Source: Candidatus Aenigmatarchaeota archaeon (GTDB lineage Archaea; Aenigmatarchaeota; Aenigmatarchaeia; Aenigmatarchaeales; JAHLMR01). From it: a DNA stretch of 29,485 bases. Location: positions 1-29,485 of the forward strand of contig JAHLMR010000007.1 in the NCBI GenBank assembly GCA_018920255.1, given 5' to 3'. The notes beneath the pieces are model-generated. The model searched no databases. It saw only the letters and a list, made by a program, of their open reading frames with translations, and was not told where the DNA came from. How positions within the stretch are numbered: position 1 is the first letter of the stretch; every line of letters starts with the position of its first letter. A program made the translations under genes and the position numbers. Shown here in pieces: positions 1 through 29,485 of the stretch.

Positions 1-534
1 GGAGAATAGGTAGAAGTAAAATATTGATATAGTAAGTATAAAGATATGATAAAGATAATAGCAACTAATATTGGTGGAAAAGCAAATATAGAAAAAATTA
101 ATGCAATTCCAGCAATACTTACTAATCCTAAAAGAATTTCTTGCCAGTGATTTTGAACTGCTCTTAAAATAGCAGAGAAAAAGTTTGCTGAAGCTTCTAA
201 TAGTTTTAAACCTGCTTCAATAAACTTTCCTTGAGAAATTAAATAAAATATAGAAGATATTGTATTAAATCCATCGTTAAATGATTTTTTAAGAAATTTT
301 AAAAGACCAGATAAAGCATCACCATTAGAATTTCCCTTAGTATTTTTATTATAGTAATATATAGCACCAAAGCCTGCTCCAAAACTAATTACAGAACTTA
401 TAATTTTATCAAAAGAAGTTGCTTGTCCGGAGATTGGATTAAAAGGTACTGCAAATCCGGGTAGAGAAAAAGATAGTATAGATAAAAAAATAAAAAGAAA
501 TTGACGTTTAAGGAGTTTATTTATTACTTTCATT
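1..534 (-). CDS. Hypothetical membrane/secreted protein, 5' part only (runs off the left edge)
   Basis: I translated the minus strand by hand from ATG at 534: MKVINKLLKRQFLFIFLSILSFSLPGFAVPFNPISGQ... The frame stays open to position 1. It has a hydrophobic N-terminus and a C-terminal hydrophobic stretch. It is absent from the ORF track because it is truncated. Confidence 0.6.
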
Positions 535-646
535 ATAAATAATTTAATTTTATTTATATTTAAAACTTGAAAAATAAAATAAATTTTTTATTGATATGTA
601 ATAAGTTTCTAAATTTGTGAATTTAAAATTGGTGTCGGGGGCGGGG

Positions 647-758
647 ATTTCTCTGCAACTTCTTCGAAGCTTCTTTTTCAAAAAAAGAAGCTTCAGCAAG
701 AAAAACTGTCTTTCTTGATGCAACTTCTTTTTTAAAGAAGTTGCAAAGAAGGTTCTTC
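647..758 (-). other. T-loop intervening sequence of tRNA(CAU), ~112 nt, putative 59/60-type intron (ends +/-2 nt)
   Basis: Lies between GCGGG-TTCAAA and C-CCCGC. It consists of stacked hairpins (GCAACTTCTTT/AAAGAAGTTGC, CAAGAAA/TTTCTTG, GAAGCTTCTTTTT/AAAAAGAAGCTTC). Confidence 0.7.
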
Positions 759-780
759 TTTGAACCCGCGACCTTCAGAT

Positions 781-816
781 ATCTCATTGATTTATTCTCG
801 AAACTCATAAATCTAT
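781..816 (-). other. Canonical 37/38 intron of tRNA(CAU), 36 nt
   Basis: CTCA (nt 32-35) pairs with TGAG just upstream of a 3-nt bulge ATA that precedes TCTGA. An inner helix GATTTAT/ATAAATC completes a bulge-helix-bulge-like fold with both cuts after the second bulge nucleotide. Confidence 0.75.
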
Positions 817-832
817 TATGAGTCTGACGCTC

Positions 833-847
833 TTTCCTGCAATAATG
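833..847 (-). other. Extra ~14-15 nt in the D-loop of tRNA(CAU), candidate micro-intron
   Basis: 24 nt (AGCCTGGTACATTATTGCAGGAAA) lie between D-stem GCTC and GAGC, where 8-11 are expected. Boundaries are not resolved. Confidence 0.4.
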
Positions 848-895
848 TACCAGGCTGAGCCACCCCGACTTTAAAAAAATAATAAAAATTAGAAT

Positions 896-2286: not shown

Positions 2287-2934
2287 TTACCAGCATTTTA
2301 TATAATTATTTAAAATTTCTATATTTACTGGCTCATAAAAAACATATTTTTCATCTAATATATATGCTGGAATTGAAGTAATATTATAATTTGTGAGAAG
2401 GATATCTATACTTGTAAGATTTAAATCTGTTGGTAAAGTTATGTATACTGTTTTAATCCCACATCTTTGTTTAAAATCAAAAAGCAATACATCCAAAATT
2501 TTTTGTTTTTCTGTTTTGTTATAATATGAATAAAAATAAATAACAGTTGAAAGTTTATCAGCACATAAATTTTTAAGTTTTAATGTATTTTTTAAAAGCT
2601 GAAGATCTAATAATGCATAATTTTGTTTTTCTAATAAAATTTCATTTGTTAATTTATTTGCAGTATCATAAAGTTCAATTTTTTTTCCAAAAAAATATAT
2701 TTTATCAGCTAAAATCCTATTTTGTTCTATTAAATAATCGCATTTTTCAGAAGTAGAAGCATTTATATACTCTTCAAAAAATTTTGCATCATTCCATAAA
2801 ATATTTATGTATAAATTTTCATTTTTTATTTCATTTAATCTTATAACTTCAGAGAGGTATCCAATCAAAAAGAAGGTAAAAATTATTATAAAAAAAATTA
2901 TTAATGTTTTTCCTATTAGGTTTTTTAGTTTCAT
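2287..2934 (-). CDS. Hypothetical N-terminally anchored protein, coupled to the GT2 gene
   Basis: The ATG lies 2 nt after the GT2 stop (TAGTTATG). There is one N-terminal TM helix and no motif I recognise. Confidence 0.6.
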   Translation of the reverse strand: MKLKNLIGKTLIIFFIIIFTFFLIGYLSEVIRLNEIKNENLYINILWNDAKFFEEYINASTSEKCDYLIEQNRILADKIYFFGKKIELYDTANKLTNEILLEKQNYALLDLQLLKNTLKLKNLCADKLSTVIYFYSYYNKTEKQKILDVLLFDFKQRCGIKTVYITLPTDLNLTSIDILLTNYNITSIPAYILDEKYVFYEPVNIEILNNYIKCW

Positions 2935-2936
2935 AA

Positions 2937-4160
2937 CTACCACGAATATGATTTTGTTAAAAACTTTATTGTTGAATGAATATAATTTAATGGTGTTAAG
3001 AATATATAAATTGTTAAAAATATTATTAAAATGAAAAAATTATCTTTAATTTTTATTTTTAAATTTATTTTATGAAAGCTTAACCATATCCATAAAAAAG
3101 ATGAAAATATAGAAAAAATACTTAAAATTATAAAAATATTAGGCAAAAGTAAGCTATCAAAATTCAGAATATTTAATAAGTTTACACCATAAAAAGATGA
3201 TGAAAATATAATAAGAATATCATAAAGCCTTGTTAAAATTAAATAAACTGTTAATATAAGCCCCAAAATTGTGAAAAAATATGCAGATATAAATAATGGA
3301 ATAACAAAACAACCAAATCCACTATATTTAGTATTAAATAACATATCTATATGTTTTATTGTTGTTTGCATTCCACCAATATTCCATCTTATTCTTTGAT
3401 GCCACCATTGTTTAAATGTTTCAGGAACAGAAGTTAAAATTTTTATTGGGACTGACATTTTTATTTTATATCCATGTCTTAAAATTCTCCATGCAATTTC
3501 TATATCTTCAGTCATATTATTTTTATCAAAACCACCTATTTCTTTTAATACTTTTTTTCTATAAAGAGCAAATGGTCCTGGAGTTACATATATTGCATTT
3601 AAATTTTCTAAAATTTTTCTACTTAGAATATATAAGATATATTCAATACTTTGGAGTTTTTCTATTATATTTTTTGGCCTATCAACAAAAATAGAAACTG
3701 TTACTGCAGCAACATCTTTATCTTCAAAAAAACCAATAGATTTTAGTAATGCATCTTTTGAAGGATATGTATCAGCATCTATAGTAACAATTATCTCTCC
3801 CTTAGCTTTTTTTAATCCATAATTTAATGCATCTGCTTTTCCTCCATTTTTCTTAGAAAAAACTTTAATTCCTTTTATTTTTTTTAAAATTTCTAAAGAA
3901 TTATCTGTTGAACCATCATTTATAACTATAATTTCAAATTTTTTAGGATATTTTAATTTTTTAACATATTCTATAGTTTTTTTAATACATTTTTCTTTAT
4001 TATAAACAGGTATTAAAATACTTACAGAAGGGAAACTTTTTGGCTTAGAATATGAAACTATATTTTTTCTTGAAATATAAAATAGATTAAAGAAAAAAAT
4101 CATGAAAAAAATACTTGAAATAATTAAAAACAAAAATATCCAATCTAATAAATACATCAT
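2937..4160 (-). CDS. Processive family-2 glycosyltransferase (PgaC/IcaA/NodC/chitin-synthase-like), integral membrane
   Basis: Motifs INDGSTD, DADT, TEDIE and QRIRW (the D,D,D,QxxRW signature), with N- and C-terminal TM helices. Confidence 0.8.
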   Translation of the reverse strand: MMYLLDWIFLFLIISSIFFMIFFFNLFYISRKNIVSYSKPKSFPSVSILIPVYNKEKCIKKTIEYVKKLKYPKKFEIIVINDGSTDNSLEILKKIKGIKVFSKKNGGKADALNYGLKKAKGEIIVTIDADTYPSKDALLKSIGFFEDKDVAAVTVSIFVDRPKNIIEKLQSIEYILYILSRKILENLNAIYVTPGPFALYRKKVLKEIGGFDKNNMTEDIEIAWRILRHGYKIKMSVPIKILTSVPETFKQWWHQRIRWNIGGMQTTIKHIDMLFNTKYSGFGCFVIPLFISAYFFTILGLILTVYLILTRLYDILIIFSSSFYGVNLLNILNFDSLLLPNIFIILSIFSIFSSFLWIWLSFHKINLKIKIKDNFFILIIFLTIYIFLTPLNYIHSTIKFLTKSYSW

Positions 4161-8716: not shown

Positions 8717-8874
8717 GCGCCATTGGTCTAGTGGTAGGATAGGAGCTTCCCAAGCTCTTGGCCTGGGTTCAAAGAACCTTCTTTCTTAAAGAAAGAAGGT
8801 TCATCAAGAAAGACAAATTTTCTTGATGCAACTTCTTTTTTAAAGAAGTTGCGGGATTCCCAGATGGCGCACCA
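8717..8874 (+). tRNA. tRNA-Gly(CCC) with 84-nt T-loop insertion, CCA encoded
   Basis: GCGCCAT-TG-GTCT-AGTGGTA-GGAT-A-GGAGC-TTCCCAA-GCTCT-TGGC-CTGGG-TTCAAA[84 nt]T-CCCAG-ATGGCGC-A-CCA. Confidence 0.85.
8774..8857 (+). other. T-loop intervening sequence of tRNA-Gly(CCC), 84 nt, three hairpin modules
   Basis: Modules: GAACCTTCTTTC-TTAAA-GAAAGAAGGTTC; ATCAAGAAA-GACAAA-TTTTCTTGAT; GCAACTTCTTT-TTT-AAAGAAGTTGC. It ends with GGG-AT before the 3' exon. Confidence 0.7.
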
Positions 8875-8877
8875 TTA

Positions 8878-9798
8878 ATGTTTATATTTAGATTTTTAAA
8901 TTATTTTATTATGAATAAAAGAGAGTTATTTTTATCAGATTTAGCATTAAAACTTTTTGGAAAATGTGTTGAAAAAAATAAAAAAATATTTCAAAATTTT
9001 CGTGCTGCAATTGTTTCATCTGGAATAGAAATTCTTTCAGTAACATATATTTCATGTATGCTTTTATATCTTTGTATAGCTCCATTTATTTCTTTAATTT
9101 TTTCAACGTTTATAATTTTTGTATTAAAATTTATAATAATAAATTGGTTAGTTGATATTTTAATTTACATACTTATATTTGAAATTTTAACATTTTTGAT
9201 ATTTTTTAGTTACCCATATATAAAAATGTCAAATAACACTGCAGAAATAGATAGCAATCTTCCATTTGCTTTAATACATATGCAAACAATTGCTGAAAGT
9301 GGAGCACCACCTATTGTTATTTTTAAACTTTTATCAAACTTTAAGGAATATGGTTATCTTTCTAAAGAATTTCAAAAAATTTCAAGAAATATAGAAATGT
9401 TTGGAATGGATAATATCTCAGCTATAAGAGATGTAATGTTAAAAACTCCATCATCGAATCTTAAAGATATTTTATCTGGAATGATTACAACTATTCAATC
9501 TGGAGGAAAGCTTTCACAATATATTTCTGAAAGAGCTGAACAAATGTTATTTGAATATAAACTCTCAAGAAGAAAATATGAAGAGACACTTACTGCATAT
9601 GCAGATATTTATACTGTAGTATTAATAGCTGCTCCACTTATGCTTGTTATAGTATTAACTATTATTGCAACTATAGGAGGAAATGTTTTTGGTATTCCCC
9701 CAAATTTGCTTATTATAATAAGTGTTTATGGAATAGTTCCATCATTAAATTTAATATTTTTAATTTTTTTACTTATTACTCAACCTAAAGGTGGATAA
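8878..9798 (+). CDS. FlaJ/TadC/PilC-like type IV filament platform membrane protein (T2SS-F domain), part 1
   Basis: LPFALIHMQTIAESGAPPIVIFKLLSN plus multiple TM helices. The true start may be MNKRELF at 8911. Confidence 0.7.
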   Translation: MFIFRFLNYFIMNKRELFLSDLALKLFGKCVEKNKKIFQNFRAAIVSSGIEILSVTYISCMLLYLCIAPFISLIFSTFIIFVLKFIIINWLVDILIYILIFEILTFLIFFSYPYIKMSNNTAEIDSNLPFALIHMQTIAESGAPPIVIFKLLSNFKEYGYLSKEFQKISRNIEMFGMDNISAIRDVMLKTPSSNLKDILSGMITTIQSGGKLSQYISERAEQMLFEYKLSRRKYEETLTAYADIYTVVLIAAPLMLVIVLTIIATIGGNVFGIPPNLLIIISVYGIVPSLNLIFLIFLLITQPKGG

Positions 9799-9801
9799 AA
9801 A

Positions 9802-10572
9802 ATGAATAAACTATATATAATAACAAGTATAATAGGGTGTATAATTTTTTCTATAAATGTAATTTATTTTTTAAATTATCAAAAAATTTTTACTATAATA
9901 AACATTATTGCAATTTTAATTTTATTTGGAATTCCAATATTTTCAAAATATTATAGTTTTTTAAAAGTAAAAAATATAGAAAAATATTTTCCTCTTTGGT
10001 TAGGTGATGTTTCACGAAATATTAGAAGCGGTATGACTCTTTCTCAAGCAATAGTAAAAACAAAAGAAAACAGATATGGAAATTTTTCAAAAATTTTAAA
10101 ACACGCAGCAATACAAATTGACTGGGGTGTTTCCTTTTCAAAAATTTTAGAAGAAATTAAAATAAAATGTAAAAGTGAAGTTATCTCTCAGGCGCTTTTA
10201 ACTATAGAGGAAGCATATAAAAGTGGTGGTAAAATAGCAGAAACTTTAGAAAGGGTTGAAAAAAATATTAATGAAATTAACAAACTTAAAGAAGAAAGAT
10301 ACTCAACAATATATTCACAAGTAATAACTGGCTATATAATTTTTATTATATTTTTAGTTGTAATTTATATAATGAAAACGCAATTATTACCAATGCTTTC
10401 AAATCTTTCATCTGAAACAAACATTTCTAACTATATTATACACCTCACAATTATTCAGGCAGTTTTTTCAGGAATAATTATTGGAAAACTATCAGAAGGT
10501 AAAATTATTTCTGGTTTAAAGCACAGTCTTATTTTATTTATCATGAGCTATGGAATTTTTGGATTATTATGA
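9802..10572 (+). CDS. FlaJ/TadC/PilC-like platform membrane protein (T2SS-F domain), part 2
   Basis: RSGMTLSQAIVKT...TIEEAYKSGGKIAETLERV plus TM helices. It starts 3 nt after the previous gene. Confidence 0.65.
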   Translation: MNKLYIITSIIGCIIFSINVIYFLNYQKIFTIINIIAILILFGIPIFSKYYSFLKVKNIEKYFPLWLGDVSRNIRSGMTLSQAIVKTKENRYGNFSKILKHAAIQIDWGVSFSKILEEIKIKCKSEVISQALLTIEEAYKSGGKIAETLERVEKNINEINKLKEERYSTIYSQVITGYIIFIIFLVVIYIMKTQLLPMLSNLSSETNISNYIIHLTIIQAVFSGIIIGKLSEGKIISGLKHSLILFIMSYGIFGLL

Positions 10573-17814: not shown

Positions 17815-17998
17815 TGGTGCGCCAGCTGGGAATCCCGCAACTTCTTCGAAGCTTCTTTTTCAAAAAAAGAAGCTTCAGCAAGAAAAACTTTTTAAGTTTT
17901 CTTGATGAAACTTCTTTTTCTAAAAGAAGTTTCGAAGCTTCTTCGAACCCAGGTCAGCAGCTTGGAAGGCTGCGGTCCTACCACTAGACTACTGGCGC
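17815..17998 (-). tRNA. tRNA-Gly(UCC) with 110-nt T-loop insertion, CCA encoded
   Basis: GCGCCAG-TA-GTCT-AGTGGTA-GGAC-C-GCAGC-CTTCCAA-GCTGC-TGAC-CTGGG-TTCGAA[110 nt]T-CCCAG-CTGGCGC-A-CCA. Confidence 0.85.
17832..17941 (-). other. T-loop intervening sequence of tRNA-Gly(UCC), 110 nt
   Basis: T-loop UUCG can pair with the intron-terminal CGGG, followed by a 3-nt bulge AUU, giving a half-BHB at the 3' site. The element shares a 53-nt identical block with the Met/Lys element. Confidence 0.7.
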
Positions 17999-20072: not shown

Positions 20073-20259
20073 TGGTGGGCCCAACGGGATTCTCTGCAAC
20101 TTCTTCGAAGCTTCTTTTTCAAAAAAAGAAGCTTCAGCAAGAAAAACTGTCTTTCTTGATGCAACTTCTTTTTTAAAGAAGTTGCAAAGAAGGTTCTTCT
20201 TTGAACCCGCGACCTTCCGCTTAAGAGGCGGTTGCTCTACCAGACTGAGCTATGGACCC
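20073..20259 (-). tRNA. tRNA-Lys(CUU) with 110-nt T-loop insertion, CCA encoded
   Basis: GGGTCCA-TA-GCTC-AGTCTGGTA-GAGC-A-ACCGC-CTCTTAA-GCGGA-AGGTC-GCGGG-TTCAAA[110 nt]T-CCCGT-TGGGCCC-A-CCA. One A27/A43 mismatch and two G:U pairs. Confidence 0.85.
20090..20199 (-). other. T-loop intervening sequence of tRNA-Lys, 110 nt, identical to the tRNA(CAU) copy
   Basis: 20092-20216 equals 651-775 base for base in my manual alignment. Confidence 0.75.
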
Positions 20260-23776: not shown

Positions 23777-24385
23777 TTAATCACCTGTATTTAATATTTT
23801 TGCTAAATTTCTTTTTGAAAGCATTTCAGCTATTTCAATTGGAAGATTAATTCTTTCATTGCATGAATATGGCCCGTACTCTTTTTCGTCAGGACCCAAA
23901 AATCTTGGTATATCTTGTATAATTAAAACTTCACAGTTGTTTTCTAATCTTTTTTCTTCTTTTATTTCAAGAATTTTATTTTTTGCTTCAGAAATTTTTT
24001 CTTCAACTATAGTTGTATAATCAAAAATCCTTCCTCGAATTTGATCTTTATAATTTTTCATAAGAAGTATAAGCTCGTCGAAAAATTTTTGCTCTTCTTC
24101 CGTCATATTTTTTAATGGTAATTCACCTCTAATTGTTCTAAGAGCACCTAATACAATTTTTTTCATTCTTCTATTTATAATATCCTCTAAAAGAAGTTTT
24201 GCATTTTTTACTTCTATTATAGATTCCGGATTTTTAGAATTCTGTTTTTGATTAAACCATAAAGAAACTGATTTATAAAAATCATTAGGAAGTTTTGATA
24301 AAGTTCCTTTTTCATCTTCTTTTTTTTCTTCTCTGTTAATCATTCTTATATATTCATAGGTTATTATTTCAGTCATTTTTATCAC
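23777..24385 (-). CDS. GINS subunit (Gins51/Gins15-like)
   Basis: ITYEYIRMINREEK...LSKLPNDFYKSV...NAKLLLEDIINRRMKKI is a typical Gins51 N-terminal pattern. It sits immediately downstream of the primase, a conserved archaeal pairing. Confidence 0.6.
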   Translation of the reverse strand: MIKMTEIITYEYIRMINREEKKEDEKGTLSKLPNDFYKSVSLWFNQKQNSKNPESIIEVKNAKLLLEDIINRRMKKIVLGALRTIRGELPLKNMTEEEQKFFDELILLMKNYKDQIRGRIFDYTTIVEEKISEAKNKILEIKEEKRLENNCEVLIIQDIPRFLGPDEKEYGPYSCNERINLPIEIAEMLSKRNLAKILNTGD

Positions 24386-25668
24386 TTATTTTTATTCTTT
24401 TTAATAGATTTATTATTTTTCATTTCTTTTAAATAAAGTGAAATTGCATAGTTTACCGGATTTTTTTTACAATTTTCATTTTTTTGACATATTCCTATTG
24501 ATTTATAATATAAATCAGAATCGCAATTTGCTGGCATTAAAACTCTTGATTGTCTTGCATGCCATTTAATTTGAGTTGTTATATATCTTTCTGAAAGTTT
24601 TTGTGTGTTTTTCGAATTCCATTCTAAAAGAATTTTTTCAATATCCTGAATATTCCAACCAACATTTTGTAAAAATGTTATAATTGTAAAAATAGATCTT
24701 TTTTTACCATCTGAAAGACCCTTTAAAATATTTTTTATACAAGGTGGAAAATATTTTTCTGGTATTTTAAATCCTATTTTTATATTTTTTTTCTTTTCTT
24801 CTATCTTTTGTGGTTTAAAAAATCCAGTTTCAGCAGCCCATTTAAATGCTGCATCAATAAGATCATTTGCTTCATCTTTTTTATTAATAAGAAAATCAGC
24901 ATATATTTTTGGTTTTTTAAAATCAGCCCATTCTATATTAAAGTTTTTTATATCTGATATTTTTATTGGAATTGAAATTTTCCATGTTTTTTCATTAAAT
25001 GAGTAAGGCATTCTAAACAAATGCCTTACTCCCCAATTTTTTTCTATTTCAACAAATTCATAAGGTGATAATTCTTTTAAAGATGGTATAAGATTTATTA
25101 AAGAGCTATAGCCGCCTTCTAATGCAACAAGTCTTTCAAGTAAGCGATCTTTAATTTTTTCACTTATAAAAGAAGAAATTAATCTTGGGAGATTTGGATA
25201 AAATTCTGAAATTGATTTACCATTTATTTTTTCTGGAAATGCGTTAGAAGCTATTGCAATATGAAAACCCCTTCTTCCACTAAACTTAATAGTTGGAGAT
25301 ATTGAATACTGTTTAAGAAACTCGCATACTTCAATTGCACATTCTTTAGAATGTTCTAATTTAACTTTAGAATCAATATCTATTATCAAATCAAACCCAC
25401 AACGAAGTTTATTTAATTCTAATTCATTTGACGTTATACTCATTGGTTGTGACCAATGCTCAACAGAACAATGGAATGCAACTGCTCCTTTCTCTACTCT
25501 TTCAACAATATCTCTAGAGTATAATAAAATATCTGGTCTTTTTAAATAAATACCATCTGATGTTACAGAAACAACTTCTCTATTTTTTGAAAAAGAAAGA
25601 ATTTTTTCTTGAATAATCTTATTTGAATAGTAATTTAGAATTTCTTCTTTAGATAAGCTTTCTACCAT
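24382..25668 (-). CDS. DNA primase, fused PriS catalytic domain + PriL C-terminal Fe-S domain
   Basis: AEP motifs FDLIIDIDSK, SGRRGFHI and FRMPYSFNEKT. C-terminal YFPPCIKNILKGLSDGKKRSIFTIITFLQNVGW plus Cys in ANC, GIC and ENC resembles PriL-CTD. Confidence 0.8.
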   Translation of the reverse strand: MVESLSKEEILNYYSNKIIQEKILSFSKNREVVSVTSDGIYLKRPDILLYSRDIVERVEKGAVAFHCSVEHWSQPMSITSNELELNKLRCGFDLIIDIDSKVKLEHSKECAIEVCEFLKQYSISPTIKFSGRRGFHIAIASNAFPEKINGKSISEFYPNLPRLISSFISEKIKDRLLERLVALEGGYSSLINLIPSLKELSPYEFVEIEKNWGVRHLFRMPYSFNEKTWKISIPIKISDIKNFNIEWADFKKPKIYADFLINKKDEANDLIDAAFKWAAETGFFKPQKIEEKKKNIKIGFKIPEKYFPPCIKNILKGLSDGKKRSIFTIITFLQNVGWNIQDIEKILLEWNSKNTQKLSERYITTQIKWHARQSRVLMPANCDSDLYYKSIGICQKNENCKKNPVNYAISLYLKEMKNNKSIKKNKNK

Positions 25669-28131: not shown

Positions 28132-28155
28132 ATTAAGTAGATATTAGATTCCTAT

Positions 28156-28222
28156 TTTACATTTTTAACTTCAGTAAATACTAATTCTCTGTCTTTTGTT
28201 TTTGAAATAATATCGAATTTTA
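28156..28222 (-). pseudogene. Decayed fragment of the PD-(D/E)xK-like gene found at 29129-29485
   Basis: 67 nt with 4 mismatches versus 29349-29415. It translates as KFDIISKTKDRELVFTEVKNVK and is bounded by stops on both sides. Confidence 0.7.
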
Positions 28223-29128: not shown

Positions 29129-29485
29129 TCAATCAACCTTATCTATTACTATTATATCAATATTATATATTGATTTAAATTCTTCTAATTTATTTAAAAT
29201 AGTTTTTGGTATTTTTTCATGTGATATAAATCTATATTTAATTTTTTGATTAATTTCAATGTTTTTAAGAAAAATAAGATGTGATTTTATTTGTTTTATT
29301 ATTTCTTTGAAATCTTTAGTTTCGGAATTTTCATAAATTTTTTCCCAATTTACATTTTTAACTTCAGTAAATACTAATTCTCCATCTTTTGTTTCTGAAA
29401 TAATATCGAATTCTATGTTTTCTGTTTCTTTTTCTCTAATTCTTTTAATCTCTTTAATAGCATTTTCATTTATTTTAATATTTTT
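29129..29485 (-). CDS. C-terminal part of a PD-(D/E)xK-like nuclease-fold protein (possibly DUF234-type), 5' end outside the window
   Basis: I translated 118 codons plus stop by hand, in frame to the window edge. The core is EFDIISETKDGELVFTEVKNVNW (D...E-x-K). Confidence 0.55.
   Translation of the reverse strand, partial: KNIKINENAIKEIKRIREKETENIEFDIISETKDGELVFTEVKNVNWEKIYENSETKDFKEIIKQIKSHLIFLKNIEINQKIKYRFISHEKIPKTILNKLEEFKSIYNIDIIVIDKVD
29349..29415 (-). repeat. Direct repeat partner of 28156-28222
   Basis: 63/67 identical in a manual alignment. The two copies are 1193 bp apart and bracket the 282-aa gene. Confidence 0.8.

Follow-up and report, generated by a model that had tools for sequence, protein, structure and literature searches.

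Introns at tRNA position 59/60 and relaxed splice motifs are typical of Nanoarchaeota and Crenarchaeota (PMC4090602), and the splicing endonucleases of DPANN archaea have a specificity loop that has been linked to disrupted tRNA genes (PMC5829648). The closest described case is the pre-tRNA-Cys of ARMAN-2 (Candidatus Micrarchaeum acidiphilum): its 13-nt intron at 59/60, which has a relaxed (hBH) form of the bulge-helix-bulge (BHB) motif, was cut by the epsilon2 splicing endonuclease in vitro (PMC3239211). Here, we describe four tRNA genes from a 29,485-nt stretch of a Candidatus Aenigmatarchaeota genome (contig JAHLMR010000007.1, assembly GCA_018920255.1), referred to below in its entirety as the window, each of which carries an insert at the same position of its T-loop. 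As in ARMAN-2, the host is a DPANN archaeon, the T-stem would serve as the outer helix of a relaxed motif without a proper inner helix, and the 59/60 introns coexist with canonical and multiple introns. Unlike the ARMAN-2 intron, which is 13 nt long and free of repeats, the inserts measure 84 to 112 nt, are present in every tRNA gene seen, and each contain two copies of a dispersed 34-nt hairpin-tail unit. We consider it likely that the four inserts are introns at 59/60 that undergo splicing and are made up of a dispersed repeat.

The transposed tRNA introns of Thermoproteales (Fujishima et al. 2010) have been read as DNA-level intron gain by an unknown mechanism (PMC4090602). The window shares with this type the occurrence of near-identical introns in different tRNAs (a 128-nt stretch is identical between the Met and Lys inserts), and introns are likewise found at different positions, the unit lying at both 37/38 and 59/60 in other archaea. 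In contrast to the Thermoproteales, which belong to TACK, the unit described here spans DPANN phyla and extends to rRNA genes, intergenic spacers, and mobile elements. To our knowledge, the Thermoproteales families are genus level and have not been reported outside tRNA genes.

Bacterial repetitive extragenic palindromic (REP) elements and their doublets (REPINs) are extragenic and are mobilized by RAYT transposases. The unit resembles them in combining a short palindrome with a conserved single-stranded flank, in occurring either alone or as inverted pairs that together adopt a larger fold, in often lying right after stop codons, and in its patchy, lineage-specific expansions. It differs in being archaeal and in residing in essential RNA genes, and no RAYT or IS200-type gene was present among the listed families of neighboring open reading frames (ORFs). 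With respect to extragenic location, the window copies all lie in tRNA genes, whereas other contigs have copies in operon spacers, next to tRNA genes, and in mobile elements. We know of no REP that sits inside an essential RNA gene and is spliced out. Small repeats have been reviewed (PMC3184786).

In SOS splicing, DNA transposons are removed from animal mRNAs with the factors AKAP17A and CAAP1 (PMC12779559). The concept is the same, in that an inverted-repeat mobile element within a gene would be neutralized by structure-directed RNA excision and RTCB-type ligation, but SOS splicing is eukaryotic and acts on mRNA, whereas the BHB endonuclease pathway is ancient and primarily serves tRNA. A tRNA-Thr intron gain in Caldiarchaeum subterraneum has been linked to a mobile element (PMC3293823); there as here, population-level presence or absence of a tRNA intron is attributed to mobile DNA, although the Caldiarchaeum case involves tRNA fragments and a 1.8-kb element that encodes a recombinase, in contrast to a noncoding hairpin repeat of 34 to 80 nt. 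What is known, then, is the 59/60 position and the relaxed motif; what appears to be new is a defined repeat unit within archaeal tRNA introns. Neither the sequence of the unit nor a description of it was found in the literature searched, coverage of which was incomplete, and an earlier description is possible.

tRNA genes interrupted at position 59/60

ARAGORN detected no tRNA in the window, and the Rfam tRNA model gave only two partial matches there, both below threshold. By reading the sequence, we located four tRNA genes, each interrupted between G53 and C61, at T-loop position 59/60. These genes and their putative introns are as follows, with the basis for each in parentheses.

8717 to 8874, plus strand: tRNA-Gly(CCC) gene (sequence reading; ARAGORN after intron removal)
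8774 to 8857, plus strand: putative Gly(CCC) T-loop intron, 84 nt, position 59/60 (best BHB-like geometry of all positions tried)
17815 to 17998, minus strand: tRNA-Gly(UCC) gene (sequence reading, junction geometry, ARAGORN after removal)
17832 to 17941, minus strand: putative Gly(UCC) T-loop intron, 110 nt (junction geometry; central helix with 4/4 pairs, UUCG/CGGG)
20073 to 20259, minus strand: tRNA-Lys(CUU) gene (sequence reading, junction geometry, ARAGORN after removal)
20090 to 20199, minus strand: putative Lys(CUU) T-loop intron, 110 nt (junction geometry)
630 to 869, minus strand: tRNA-Met(CAU) gene with three putative introns (sequence reading, junction geometry, ARAGORN after removal)
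647 to 758, minus strand: putative Met T-loop intron, 112 nt, the only Met intron with the repeat unit
781 to 816, minus strand: putative Met anticodon-loop intron, 36 nt (perfect 4-bp central helix, CUCA/UGAG)
833 to 847, minus strand: putative Met D-loop intron, 15 nt (sequence reading)

The G+C content of the inserts was 32 to 34%, compared with 57 to 62% for the exons of both Gly genes and Lys; the exon value for tRNA-Met (48%) still includes its two other introns. After in silico removal of the inserts at 59/60, ARAGORN recognized all four genes as canonical cloverleafs of 74 to 77 nt with a 7-nt T-loop and an encoded CCA. The 74-nt cloverleaf of Gly(CCC) was seen only once positions 8774 to 8857 had been deleted, and tRNA-Met was recognized only after deletion of all three introns.

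Every junction position that leaves a 7-nt T-loop was scored for BHB-like geometry. Only 59/60 gave, in all four genes, a 5-bp outer helix (the T-stem) together with 3 to 4 central pairs and 3-nt bulges, the central helix being formed by U54, U55, and C56 (plus G57 in Gly(UCC)) and the last purines of the insert. An earlier note on this DNA, made from its letters alone, had suggested a search for BHB and hBH motifs. The relaxed hBH/HBh′ form (5-bp T-stem, 3-nt 3′ bulge, and 3- to 4-bp helix) was found in all four genes and the strict hBHBh′ form (a 4-bp helix between two 3-nt bulges, with a helix on either side) in none, the central helix having 4/4 pairs only in Gly(UCC) and 3/4 in the other three. 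Since both arms consist of a 5-bp stem and a 7-nt loop, the 59/60 site is structurally analogous to the canonical 37/38 site. Folds constrained to the 59/60 geometry lay 0.9 to 5.2 kcal/mol above minimum free energies (MFEs) of −71 to −78 kcal/mol in Gly(CCC), Gly(UCC), and Lys. In Gly(CCC), where the insert is laid out as contiguous hairpins H1-H2-H3 followed by GGG, which pairs with U54-C56, and then by the 3′ bulge, the constrained fold (3.6 kcal/mol above the MFE) forms a perfect four-way junction in which the only unpaired strand is the 3-nt 5′ bulge.

Considering the 59/60 geometry, the low fold cost, the recovery of all four tRNAs by ARAGORN, the conservation between strains (see below), and the precedent of a cleaved 59/60 intron, the inserts would most likely be removed by the host splicing endonuclease. 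In the pre-tRNA, the T-stem would act as the outer helix, and the central helix would arise when U54-U55-C56 (with G57 in Gly(UCC)) pair with the purine-rich bases at the very end of the intron. The 3′ splice site would lie in a 3-nt bulge, while A58-A59 and the first intron base would make up the 5′ bulge, beside a hairpin that replaces the usual inner helix. A broad-specificity endonuclease could then cut both bulges, and RtcB-type ligation would restore the 7-nt T-loop. Self-splicing group I or II introns were rejected as candidates, there being no such Rfam match in the window at an E value of ≤1 and the inserts measuring 84 to 112 nt versus several hundred.

A 34-nt hairpin-tail unit in the window and beyond

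Alignment of metagenome matches delimited a sharply bounded unit of 34 nt, comprising an 11-bp hairpin (GNANCUUCUUU / AAAGAAGNUNC) with a variable loop and a tail, AUCAAGAAA; the consensus is GAAACUUCUUU-loop-AAAGAAGUUUC-AUCAAGAAA. Stem pairs 2/28 and 4/26 covary (AU, CG, and GC), and the remaining stem is invariant. No Rfam family matched the unit in the window or in the unit-bearing contigs. A covariance model of the 34-nt unit (R1) found exactly eight copies in the window, two per insert and convergent, tail to tail; no copy lies outside tRNA genes in the window, where the next-best R1 match scored 11.9 bits. The copies, given as sense or antisense relative to the tRNA, are the following.

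8774 to 8811, plus strand: sense unit beginning at the first intron base of Gly(CCC), GAACC hairpin followed by AUCAAGAAA (R1, 51.6 bits; E = 3e-14)
8819 to 8852, minus strand: antisense unit in Gly(CCC), GCAAC hairpin and tail (R1, 58.3 bits; E = 2.5e-16), identical to 711 to 744 and 20152 to 20185
17898 to 17933, minus strand: sense unit in Gly(UCC), GAAAC hairpin (R1, 56.0 bits)
17848 to 17885, plus strand: antisense unit in Gly(UCC), GAAGC hairpin, tail AGCAAGAAA (R1, 49.4 bits)
20152 to 20185, minus strand: sense unit in Lys, GCAAC hairpin (R1, 58.3 bits)
20107 to 20144, plus strand: antisense unit in Lys, GAAGC hairpin (R1, 49.4 bits)
711 to 744, minus strand: sense unit in Met, GCAAC hairpin (R1, 58.3 bits)
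666 to 703, plus strand: antisense unit in Met, GAAGC hairpin (R1, 49.4 bits)

All four inserts have a single layout, hairpin-tail/tail-hairpin (H1-H2-H3), and because the two unit tails pair with each other, the insert core consists of three abutting hairpins. The Met, Lys, and Gly(UCC) introns carry extra half-arms at both ends, plausibly because a nested two-unit element was inserted into the loop of an older hairpin. When 10 two-unit introns were folded with RNAalifold, three hairpins were recovered, with compensatory changes in 7 of 24 pairs; together with stem pairs 2/28 and 4/26, these provide the covariation that the earlier note had proposed to look for. The motif AAAGAAGTTGC, allowing ≤1 mismatch, occurred 16 times, compared with an expectation of 1.26, and none of 100 shuffles reached 16.

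This architecture recasts the earlier description of the inserts as mosaics of shuffled modules, ordered A-B-C in Gly(CCC) and A-C-B-D in Met and Lys. The sequences given for modules C and D and for the GAAGAAGTTGC tail occur exactly as written and in those orders, and the 53-nt block reported as identical was recovered at 655 to 707, 17837 to 17889, and 20096 to 20148. Module B also exists, but its 3′ arm reads TTTCTTGAT only in Gly(CCC) and TTTTTCTTGCT in the other three, and module A (AAAGAAG..CTTCTTT) is replaced in Gly(CCC) by the longer GAACC hairpin. A 34-nt block is indeed identical at 711 to 744, 8819 to 8852, and 20152 to 20185, with its middle copy starting at 8819 and not at 8826; it lies on the same genomic strand in tRNAs of opposite strands because the GCAAC unit is antisense in Gly(CCC) and sense in Met and Lys. 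Modules A (in Gly(CCC)), C, C′, and D are the hairpin variants GAACC, GCAAC, GAAAC, and GAAGC of one unit, and module B is the duplex of paired unit tails, since each insert holds two convergent units. R1 thus replaces module shuffling with one conserved two-unit architecture in all four inserts, and the differing orders arise because this architecture has different hairpin variants and extra half-arms. The alternative pairing proposed for the tail is real, the MFE folds of Met and Lys pairing it with the 5′ arm of module C. Because the unit is palindromic, neither the alternative folds nor the inversion-like relation between copies requires shuffling.

A metagenome collection was scanned with a 20-mer common to the four inserts, AAAGAAGTTKCATCAAGAAA, which yielded 124 matches at 119 loci. 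The complementary arm lay just upstream in 63 of the matches, against an estimated ~0.1 expected by chance, and the remaining matches were coding coincidences (e.g., the FabG peptide LAKEVASRN). The unit-bearing contigs were archaeal, as indicated by their large- and small-subunit rRNAs and signal recognition particle RNAs, and two were from Micrarchaeota, with an MCM protein (L086) and a phosphoenolpyruvate synthase (L070) 66% and 84% identical, respectively, to proteins so named. R1 scores reached 50 to 61 bits, the same compensatory variants (GCAAC/GUUGC and GAAGC/GCUUC) occurred in the window and elsewhere, and one 34-mer was identical at eight loci differing in context and G+C content. 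Units were recovered from the anticodon-loop introns of at least 13 tRNA genes, from T-loop introns (L064, L089, and L099, with a degenerate copy in L086), and, as a diverged copy, from a D-loop intron (L039). Other copies lay just 3′ or 5′ of tRNA genes or in spacers between protein genes. The unit often occurred as inverted pairs, and two-unit, three-hairpin introns recurred in L058, L063, L086, and L114. Archaeal rRNA genes also contain units, at 9967 to 10000 of L069 (16S) and at 9489 to 9528 and 8579 to 8615 of L070 (23S); the L069 16S gene holds further insertions, since it spans 2.9 kb versus 1.5 kb for the model. On a 1.3-kb AT-rich contig (L056, 505 to 734, minus strand), three nonidentical tandem units were spaced ~90 nt apart.

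The highest copy numbers outside the window were on L110 (14 kb; six units) and L077 (6.4 kb; five units), where units occupy spacers between short co-oriented genes. These contigs are probably archaeal viruses or plasmids, given that a protein-primed family-B DNA polymerase is encoded on L110 and a Zot-like ATPase on L077. On both, a stop codon often overlaps the first bases of the hairpin (TAAAC or TGAAAC); several of the spacers also have a start codon shortly downstream of the tail. Across contigs, only a subset of seven cases, with ORFs of 132 to 490 aa, had a stop codon that overlaps or abuts the hairpin start on the same strand (TGAAAC or TAAAC), and for intergenic units overall, crude ORF calls gave no clear orientation or distance bias. 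In three scans of a viral collection, real units were found on only two contigs, L156 and L168; nine other loci from one of the scans were chance matches. L156 (IMG/VR; 15.5 kb), a predicted viral contig with large collagen-like (GPTG-repeat) proteins, has identical inverted units 2.8 kb apart, at 113 to 146 (plus strand) and 2932 to 2965 (minus strand), with no transposase-like ORF between them. An exact 40-mer had no match in a genome collection among whose representatives the source species is absent. Among 34 loci that matched a gapped junction pattern in that collection, the eight that were read, including all five archaeal ones, were coding coincidences, and the rest were bacterial.

Units at two sites (L130, 525 to 559; L138, 1496 to 1528) adjoin tRNA 3′ fragments or partial duplicates and look like attachment-site scars of integrated elements; by eye, the ORF downstream of the L130 unit may be an integrase. 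In L044, L121, L129, and L154, a unit-like sequence, GAACCTTCTTTAAAAAAGAAGTTTCATCAAGAAA, occupies the first codons of a conserved ORF (MSEPSLKKKFHQEN...) after a GGAGG ribosome-binding site and is either an in-frame insertion or a coincidence. Several known kinds of element were rejected for the unit. A promoter (transcription factor B recognition element/TATA-like TTTCAT or TTTAAT) would make no sense inside introns, and the distance to the start codon varies from 13 to 36 nt; an intrinsic terminator would have a T-tract, which the unit does not. CRISPR repeats are similar only in their hairpin-plus-tail layout: there are no arrays, the tandem copies of L056 differ, and no cas gene was among the listed neighbor-ORF families. 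A UGAUGA at one hairpin junction recalls C/D-box small RNAs, but there is no D box or K-turn, and nothing resembles an archaeal origin-recognition box or dif site.

A scan of the tRNAs of other contigs for strict BHB motifs (4/4 central and ≥4 outer pairs) identified 12 independent unit-bearing introns. In all 12, the unit hairpin either starts 1 to 2 nt downstream of the 5′ splice site or has its end 7 nt short of the 3′ one; because it abuts the splice sites in this way, it fills the place of the inner helix. Placement of metagenomic introns with ARAGORN on ~60,000 in silico deletions was far too permissive and was abandoned in favor of this explicit scan. One strand of the unit is rich in purines (GAAG, AAGAAG, and CAAGAAA). 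The GAAG-rich ends of the unit would be complementary to the pyrimidine-rich 5′ halves of the loops (C32-U33-U34-N35 and U54-U55-C56), and an element with GAAG or GAA at its end and a stable terminal hairpin could supply both the central-helix strand and a flanking helix. The unit may persist in essential RNA genes because insertion into a loop would create or keep a cleavable junction, and the same intron can sit in both Met and Lys because the T-loop sequence is invariant among tRNAs.

One presence/absence comparison concerns a tRNA-Lys(UUU) gene upstream of MCM in four related Micrarchaeota contigs, the shared 5′ part of which is identical. L086 has an 81-nt two-unit intron at 37/38 in addition to a T-loop intron. 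The anticodon-loop intron is absent from L173 and L171, the latter having a different intron at 59/60; L172 lacks both but carries an insert further 3′. The two-unit intron is thus missing from relatives with MCM proteins 88%, 80%, and 76% identical, and it comes and goes as a whole, including the GAAG strand that pairs with C32-U35. Direct repeats flank the unit (plus its GAAG extension) in 3 of ~60 copies, namely, in L049 (11 nt), L138 (10 nt), and the 23S gene of L070 (9 nt, UCCAUGAAA, around the 9489-to-9528 copy); controls had none of ≥7 nt. Relatives of L070 offered no syntenic 23S gene for an empty-site comparison. Copy density is uneven, at eight units in the 29-kb window and up to six per 14-kb contig elsewhere, and no unit was found in ~100 kb from unselected relatives (34 kb of Aenigmatarchaeota, 27 kb of close L086 relatives, and 42 kb of other Micrarchaeota). 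A synteny walk through relatives with asparaginyl-tRNA synthetase (AsnRS) proteins 83% and 64% identical to that of the window encountered rearranged neighborhoods without units, and the tRNAs located there had no introns in their T-loops.

Weighing the explanations

Taken together, these data suggest that the unit is a dispersed and probably mobile repeat, resembling REPs or transposable elements of the miniature inverted-repeat class (MITEs), common to several DPANN lineages. The earlier note had already drawn this likeness, and it holds for a 34-nt covarying palindrome that is dispersed at non-tRNA sites, forms inverted pairs, has occasional 9- to 11-nt direct repeats, and shows presence/absence. 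Its further suggestion that the elements resemble such repeats more than ordinary tRNA introns was not supported: every window copy lies in a T-loop at 59/60, removal gives perfect tRNAs, and in the 12 other tRNA introns the unit hairpin abuts a strict BHB. Several observations nevertheless count against spliced introns made of a mobile repeat. Our view of the host genome is limited to 29 kb. The motif is relaxed: outside Gly(UCC), the central helix has just 3 standard pairs, several of them G-U, and no contiguous inner helix was found at any junction position in any of the four genes. The unconstrained MFE folds of Lys, Met, and Gly(UCC) favor long-range helices that use the 3′ splice region, the hairpin in these three genes follows the splice site only after 8 to 14 extra bases, and the exact splice position is not fixable from sequence because A residues repeat at the junction. 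Most copies have no direct repeats, and mobility is otherwise argued from the distribution of the unit and from one presence/absence case, which is in another phylum. Finally, no recurrent transposase was found among the 25 commonest of 95 families represented by 137 ORFs within 2.5 kb of units, a survey that leaves room for a trans-acting mobilizing factor encoded elsewhere.

If the inserts were instead site-specific MITE insertions that inactivate the tRNA genes, functional copies would have to lie elsewhere in the genome. Such insertions would fit with the presence of the unit at non-tRNA sites in other genomes, a few of them with flanking direct repeats, and with the rejection of the four genes by tRNA finders, but we regard them as very unlikely. 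All four tRNA genes in the window, both Gly isoacceptors included, are hit at the same nucleotide, and small DPANN genomes seldom keep duplicate tRNA genes. The exons are intact, G+C rich, and CCA ended and fold perfectly; T-stem/bulge/helix geometry is present at every junction; a second assembly, at strain level, has the same Gly(UCC) and Lys genes; and introns alike in position and relaxed motif have been cleaved experimentally in another DPANN archaeon (PMC3239211). It is exceedingly improbable that the inserts are retained as a large T-loop expansion or that the halves are processed separately as split tRNAs. Three stacked hairpins could protrude from the tRNA elbow as a compact domain, and the rRNA copies in L069 and L070 may be unspliced expansion segments; however, the elbow contact between T-loop and D-loop and the T54-A58 pair require a 7-nt T-loop, and the junctions show splice-motif geometry. 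Nor was a separate promoter-like arrangement or a complementary leader and trailer seen, although no search aimed at these was made. There is scarcely more reason to attribute the likeness to metagenomic hairpins to convergent low complexity, with the window introns related only by local gene conversion. The genome, at 25% G+C, is one in which GAAG/CTTC purine/pyrimidine tracts do occur, roughly half the pattern matches in the metagenome scan were plain coding coincidences, and the Met and Lys introns are identical, but against this reading stand the 63 complementary arms (~0.1 expected, by estimate), the concentration of archaeal matches in tRNA introns at splice sites, and the 50- to 61-bit scores and shared compensatory variants.

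It is also conceivable, though in our judgment unlikely, that the unit is conserved as a functional RNA module and not as a mobile one, the introns merely hosting it; it could act as a signal for protein binding or processing, as a stabilizer of 3′ untranslated regions, or as the core of an excised RNA that is stable (circular). The CUUCUU/AAGAAG stem core and CAAGAAA tail hardly vary, whereas the base of the stem covaries; the unit has scarcely changed (by eye) at an orthologous intergenic site with diverged flanks (L042, L065, L102, and L152); and the seven stop-codon overlaps or abutments recall bacterial REPs in 3′ untranslated regions. These points are set against a patchy distribution (none in ~100 kb of relatives versus eight in the window and up to six per mobile-element contig), presence/absence between orthologous tRNA genes, the direct-repeat cases, identical 34-mers in unrelated contexts and G+C backgrounds, orientation statistics that showed no clear overall bias, and the absence of a matching Rfam family. 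A functional role would, in any case, be compatible with mobility. A bolder extension of the spliced-intron reading, which we put forward tentatively and consider possible but doubtful, is that the unit is a horizontally spreading, splice-competent mobile cassette that itself creates introns in the loops of stable RNAs. Its targets would be the anticodon loop, T-loop, D-loop, and rRNA hairpins, where the GAAG ends would pair with loop pyrimidines and the hairpins would serve as flanking helices, making an insertion at once cleavable by the host endonuclease; archaeal viruses and plasmids would be the carriers.

Genomic context and implications

The window has a G+C content of ~25%, and the 10 ORFs checked include ones for archaeal proteins, namely, an S-layer protein, deoxyhypusine synthase, TruD, and a fused PriS-PriL primase; no EndA splicing endonuclease gene was among these 10 ORFs. 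The primase is a single 428-aa ORF (24382 to 25668, minus strand) that matches both the small and large primase subunit families. Fused PriS-PriL primases have been reported for some DPANN archaea. The AsnRS of the window is 100% identical to a protein encoded on a 48-kb contig of GCA_038998125.1, which NCBI labels "MAG: Candidatus Aenigmatarchaeota archaeon." A more distant relative, with an 83% identical AsnRS, has a tRNA-Trp(CCA) (L169, 3242 to 3364, minus strand) with an intron at the canonical position and an uninterrupted T-loop; this intron holds C-box- and D-box-like motifs (GATGATC and CTGA). A 74-nt direct repeat unrelated to the hairpin unit is present at 28149 to 28222 and 29342 to 29415 (92% identity; copies 1.2 kb apart), with a third copy-like match at L001 5558 to 5628.

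An independent NCBI assembly is 99.2% identical to the window overall, and the Gly(UCC) and Lys genes are unchanged there. Logan contigs from two further runs (L157 and L158) cover the left end of the window and stop at position 747, inside the tRNA-Met intron. The organism is present in runs SRR27170999 and SRR30574052. On NCBI contig JAVZIS010000002.1, the sequence corresponding to window positions 1 to 503 (L001, 2895 to 3396) sits ~916 nt past the last base of the window, and this contig diverges from the window after base 503. The identical Met and Lys introns seem to break or misjoin assemblies, and the left end of the window could represent either a strain rearrangement or a join made in assembly.

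Unit repeats thus matter for assembly, as at the tRNA-Met intron, and introns of this kind may explain part of the "missing" tRNAs of DPANN archaea (PMC5829648; bioRxiv 10.64898/2026.05.13.725050). The R1 model and the consensus are directly usable for searches, and the unit provides testable substrates. The origin and movement of archaeal tRNA introns are an open question, to which the shared unit contributes a concrete, searchable object, common to introns at different positions, in different tRNAs, and in different DPANN phyla and found in rRNA genes and mobile elements as well. Should the unit prove to be a splice-competent cassette, it would be the vehicle long sought for "intron transposition" in archaea, where it would parallel the introns that derive from transposons.

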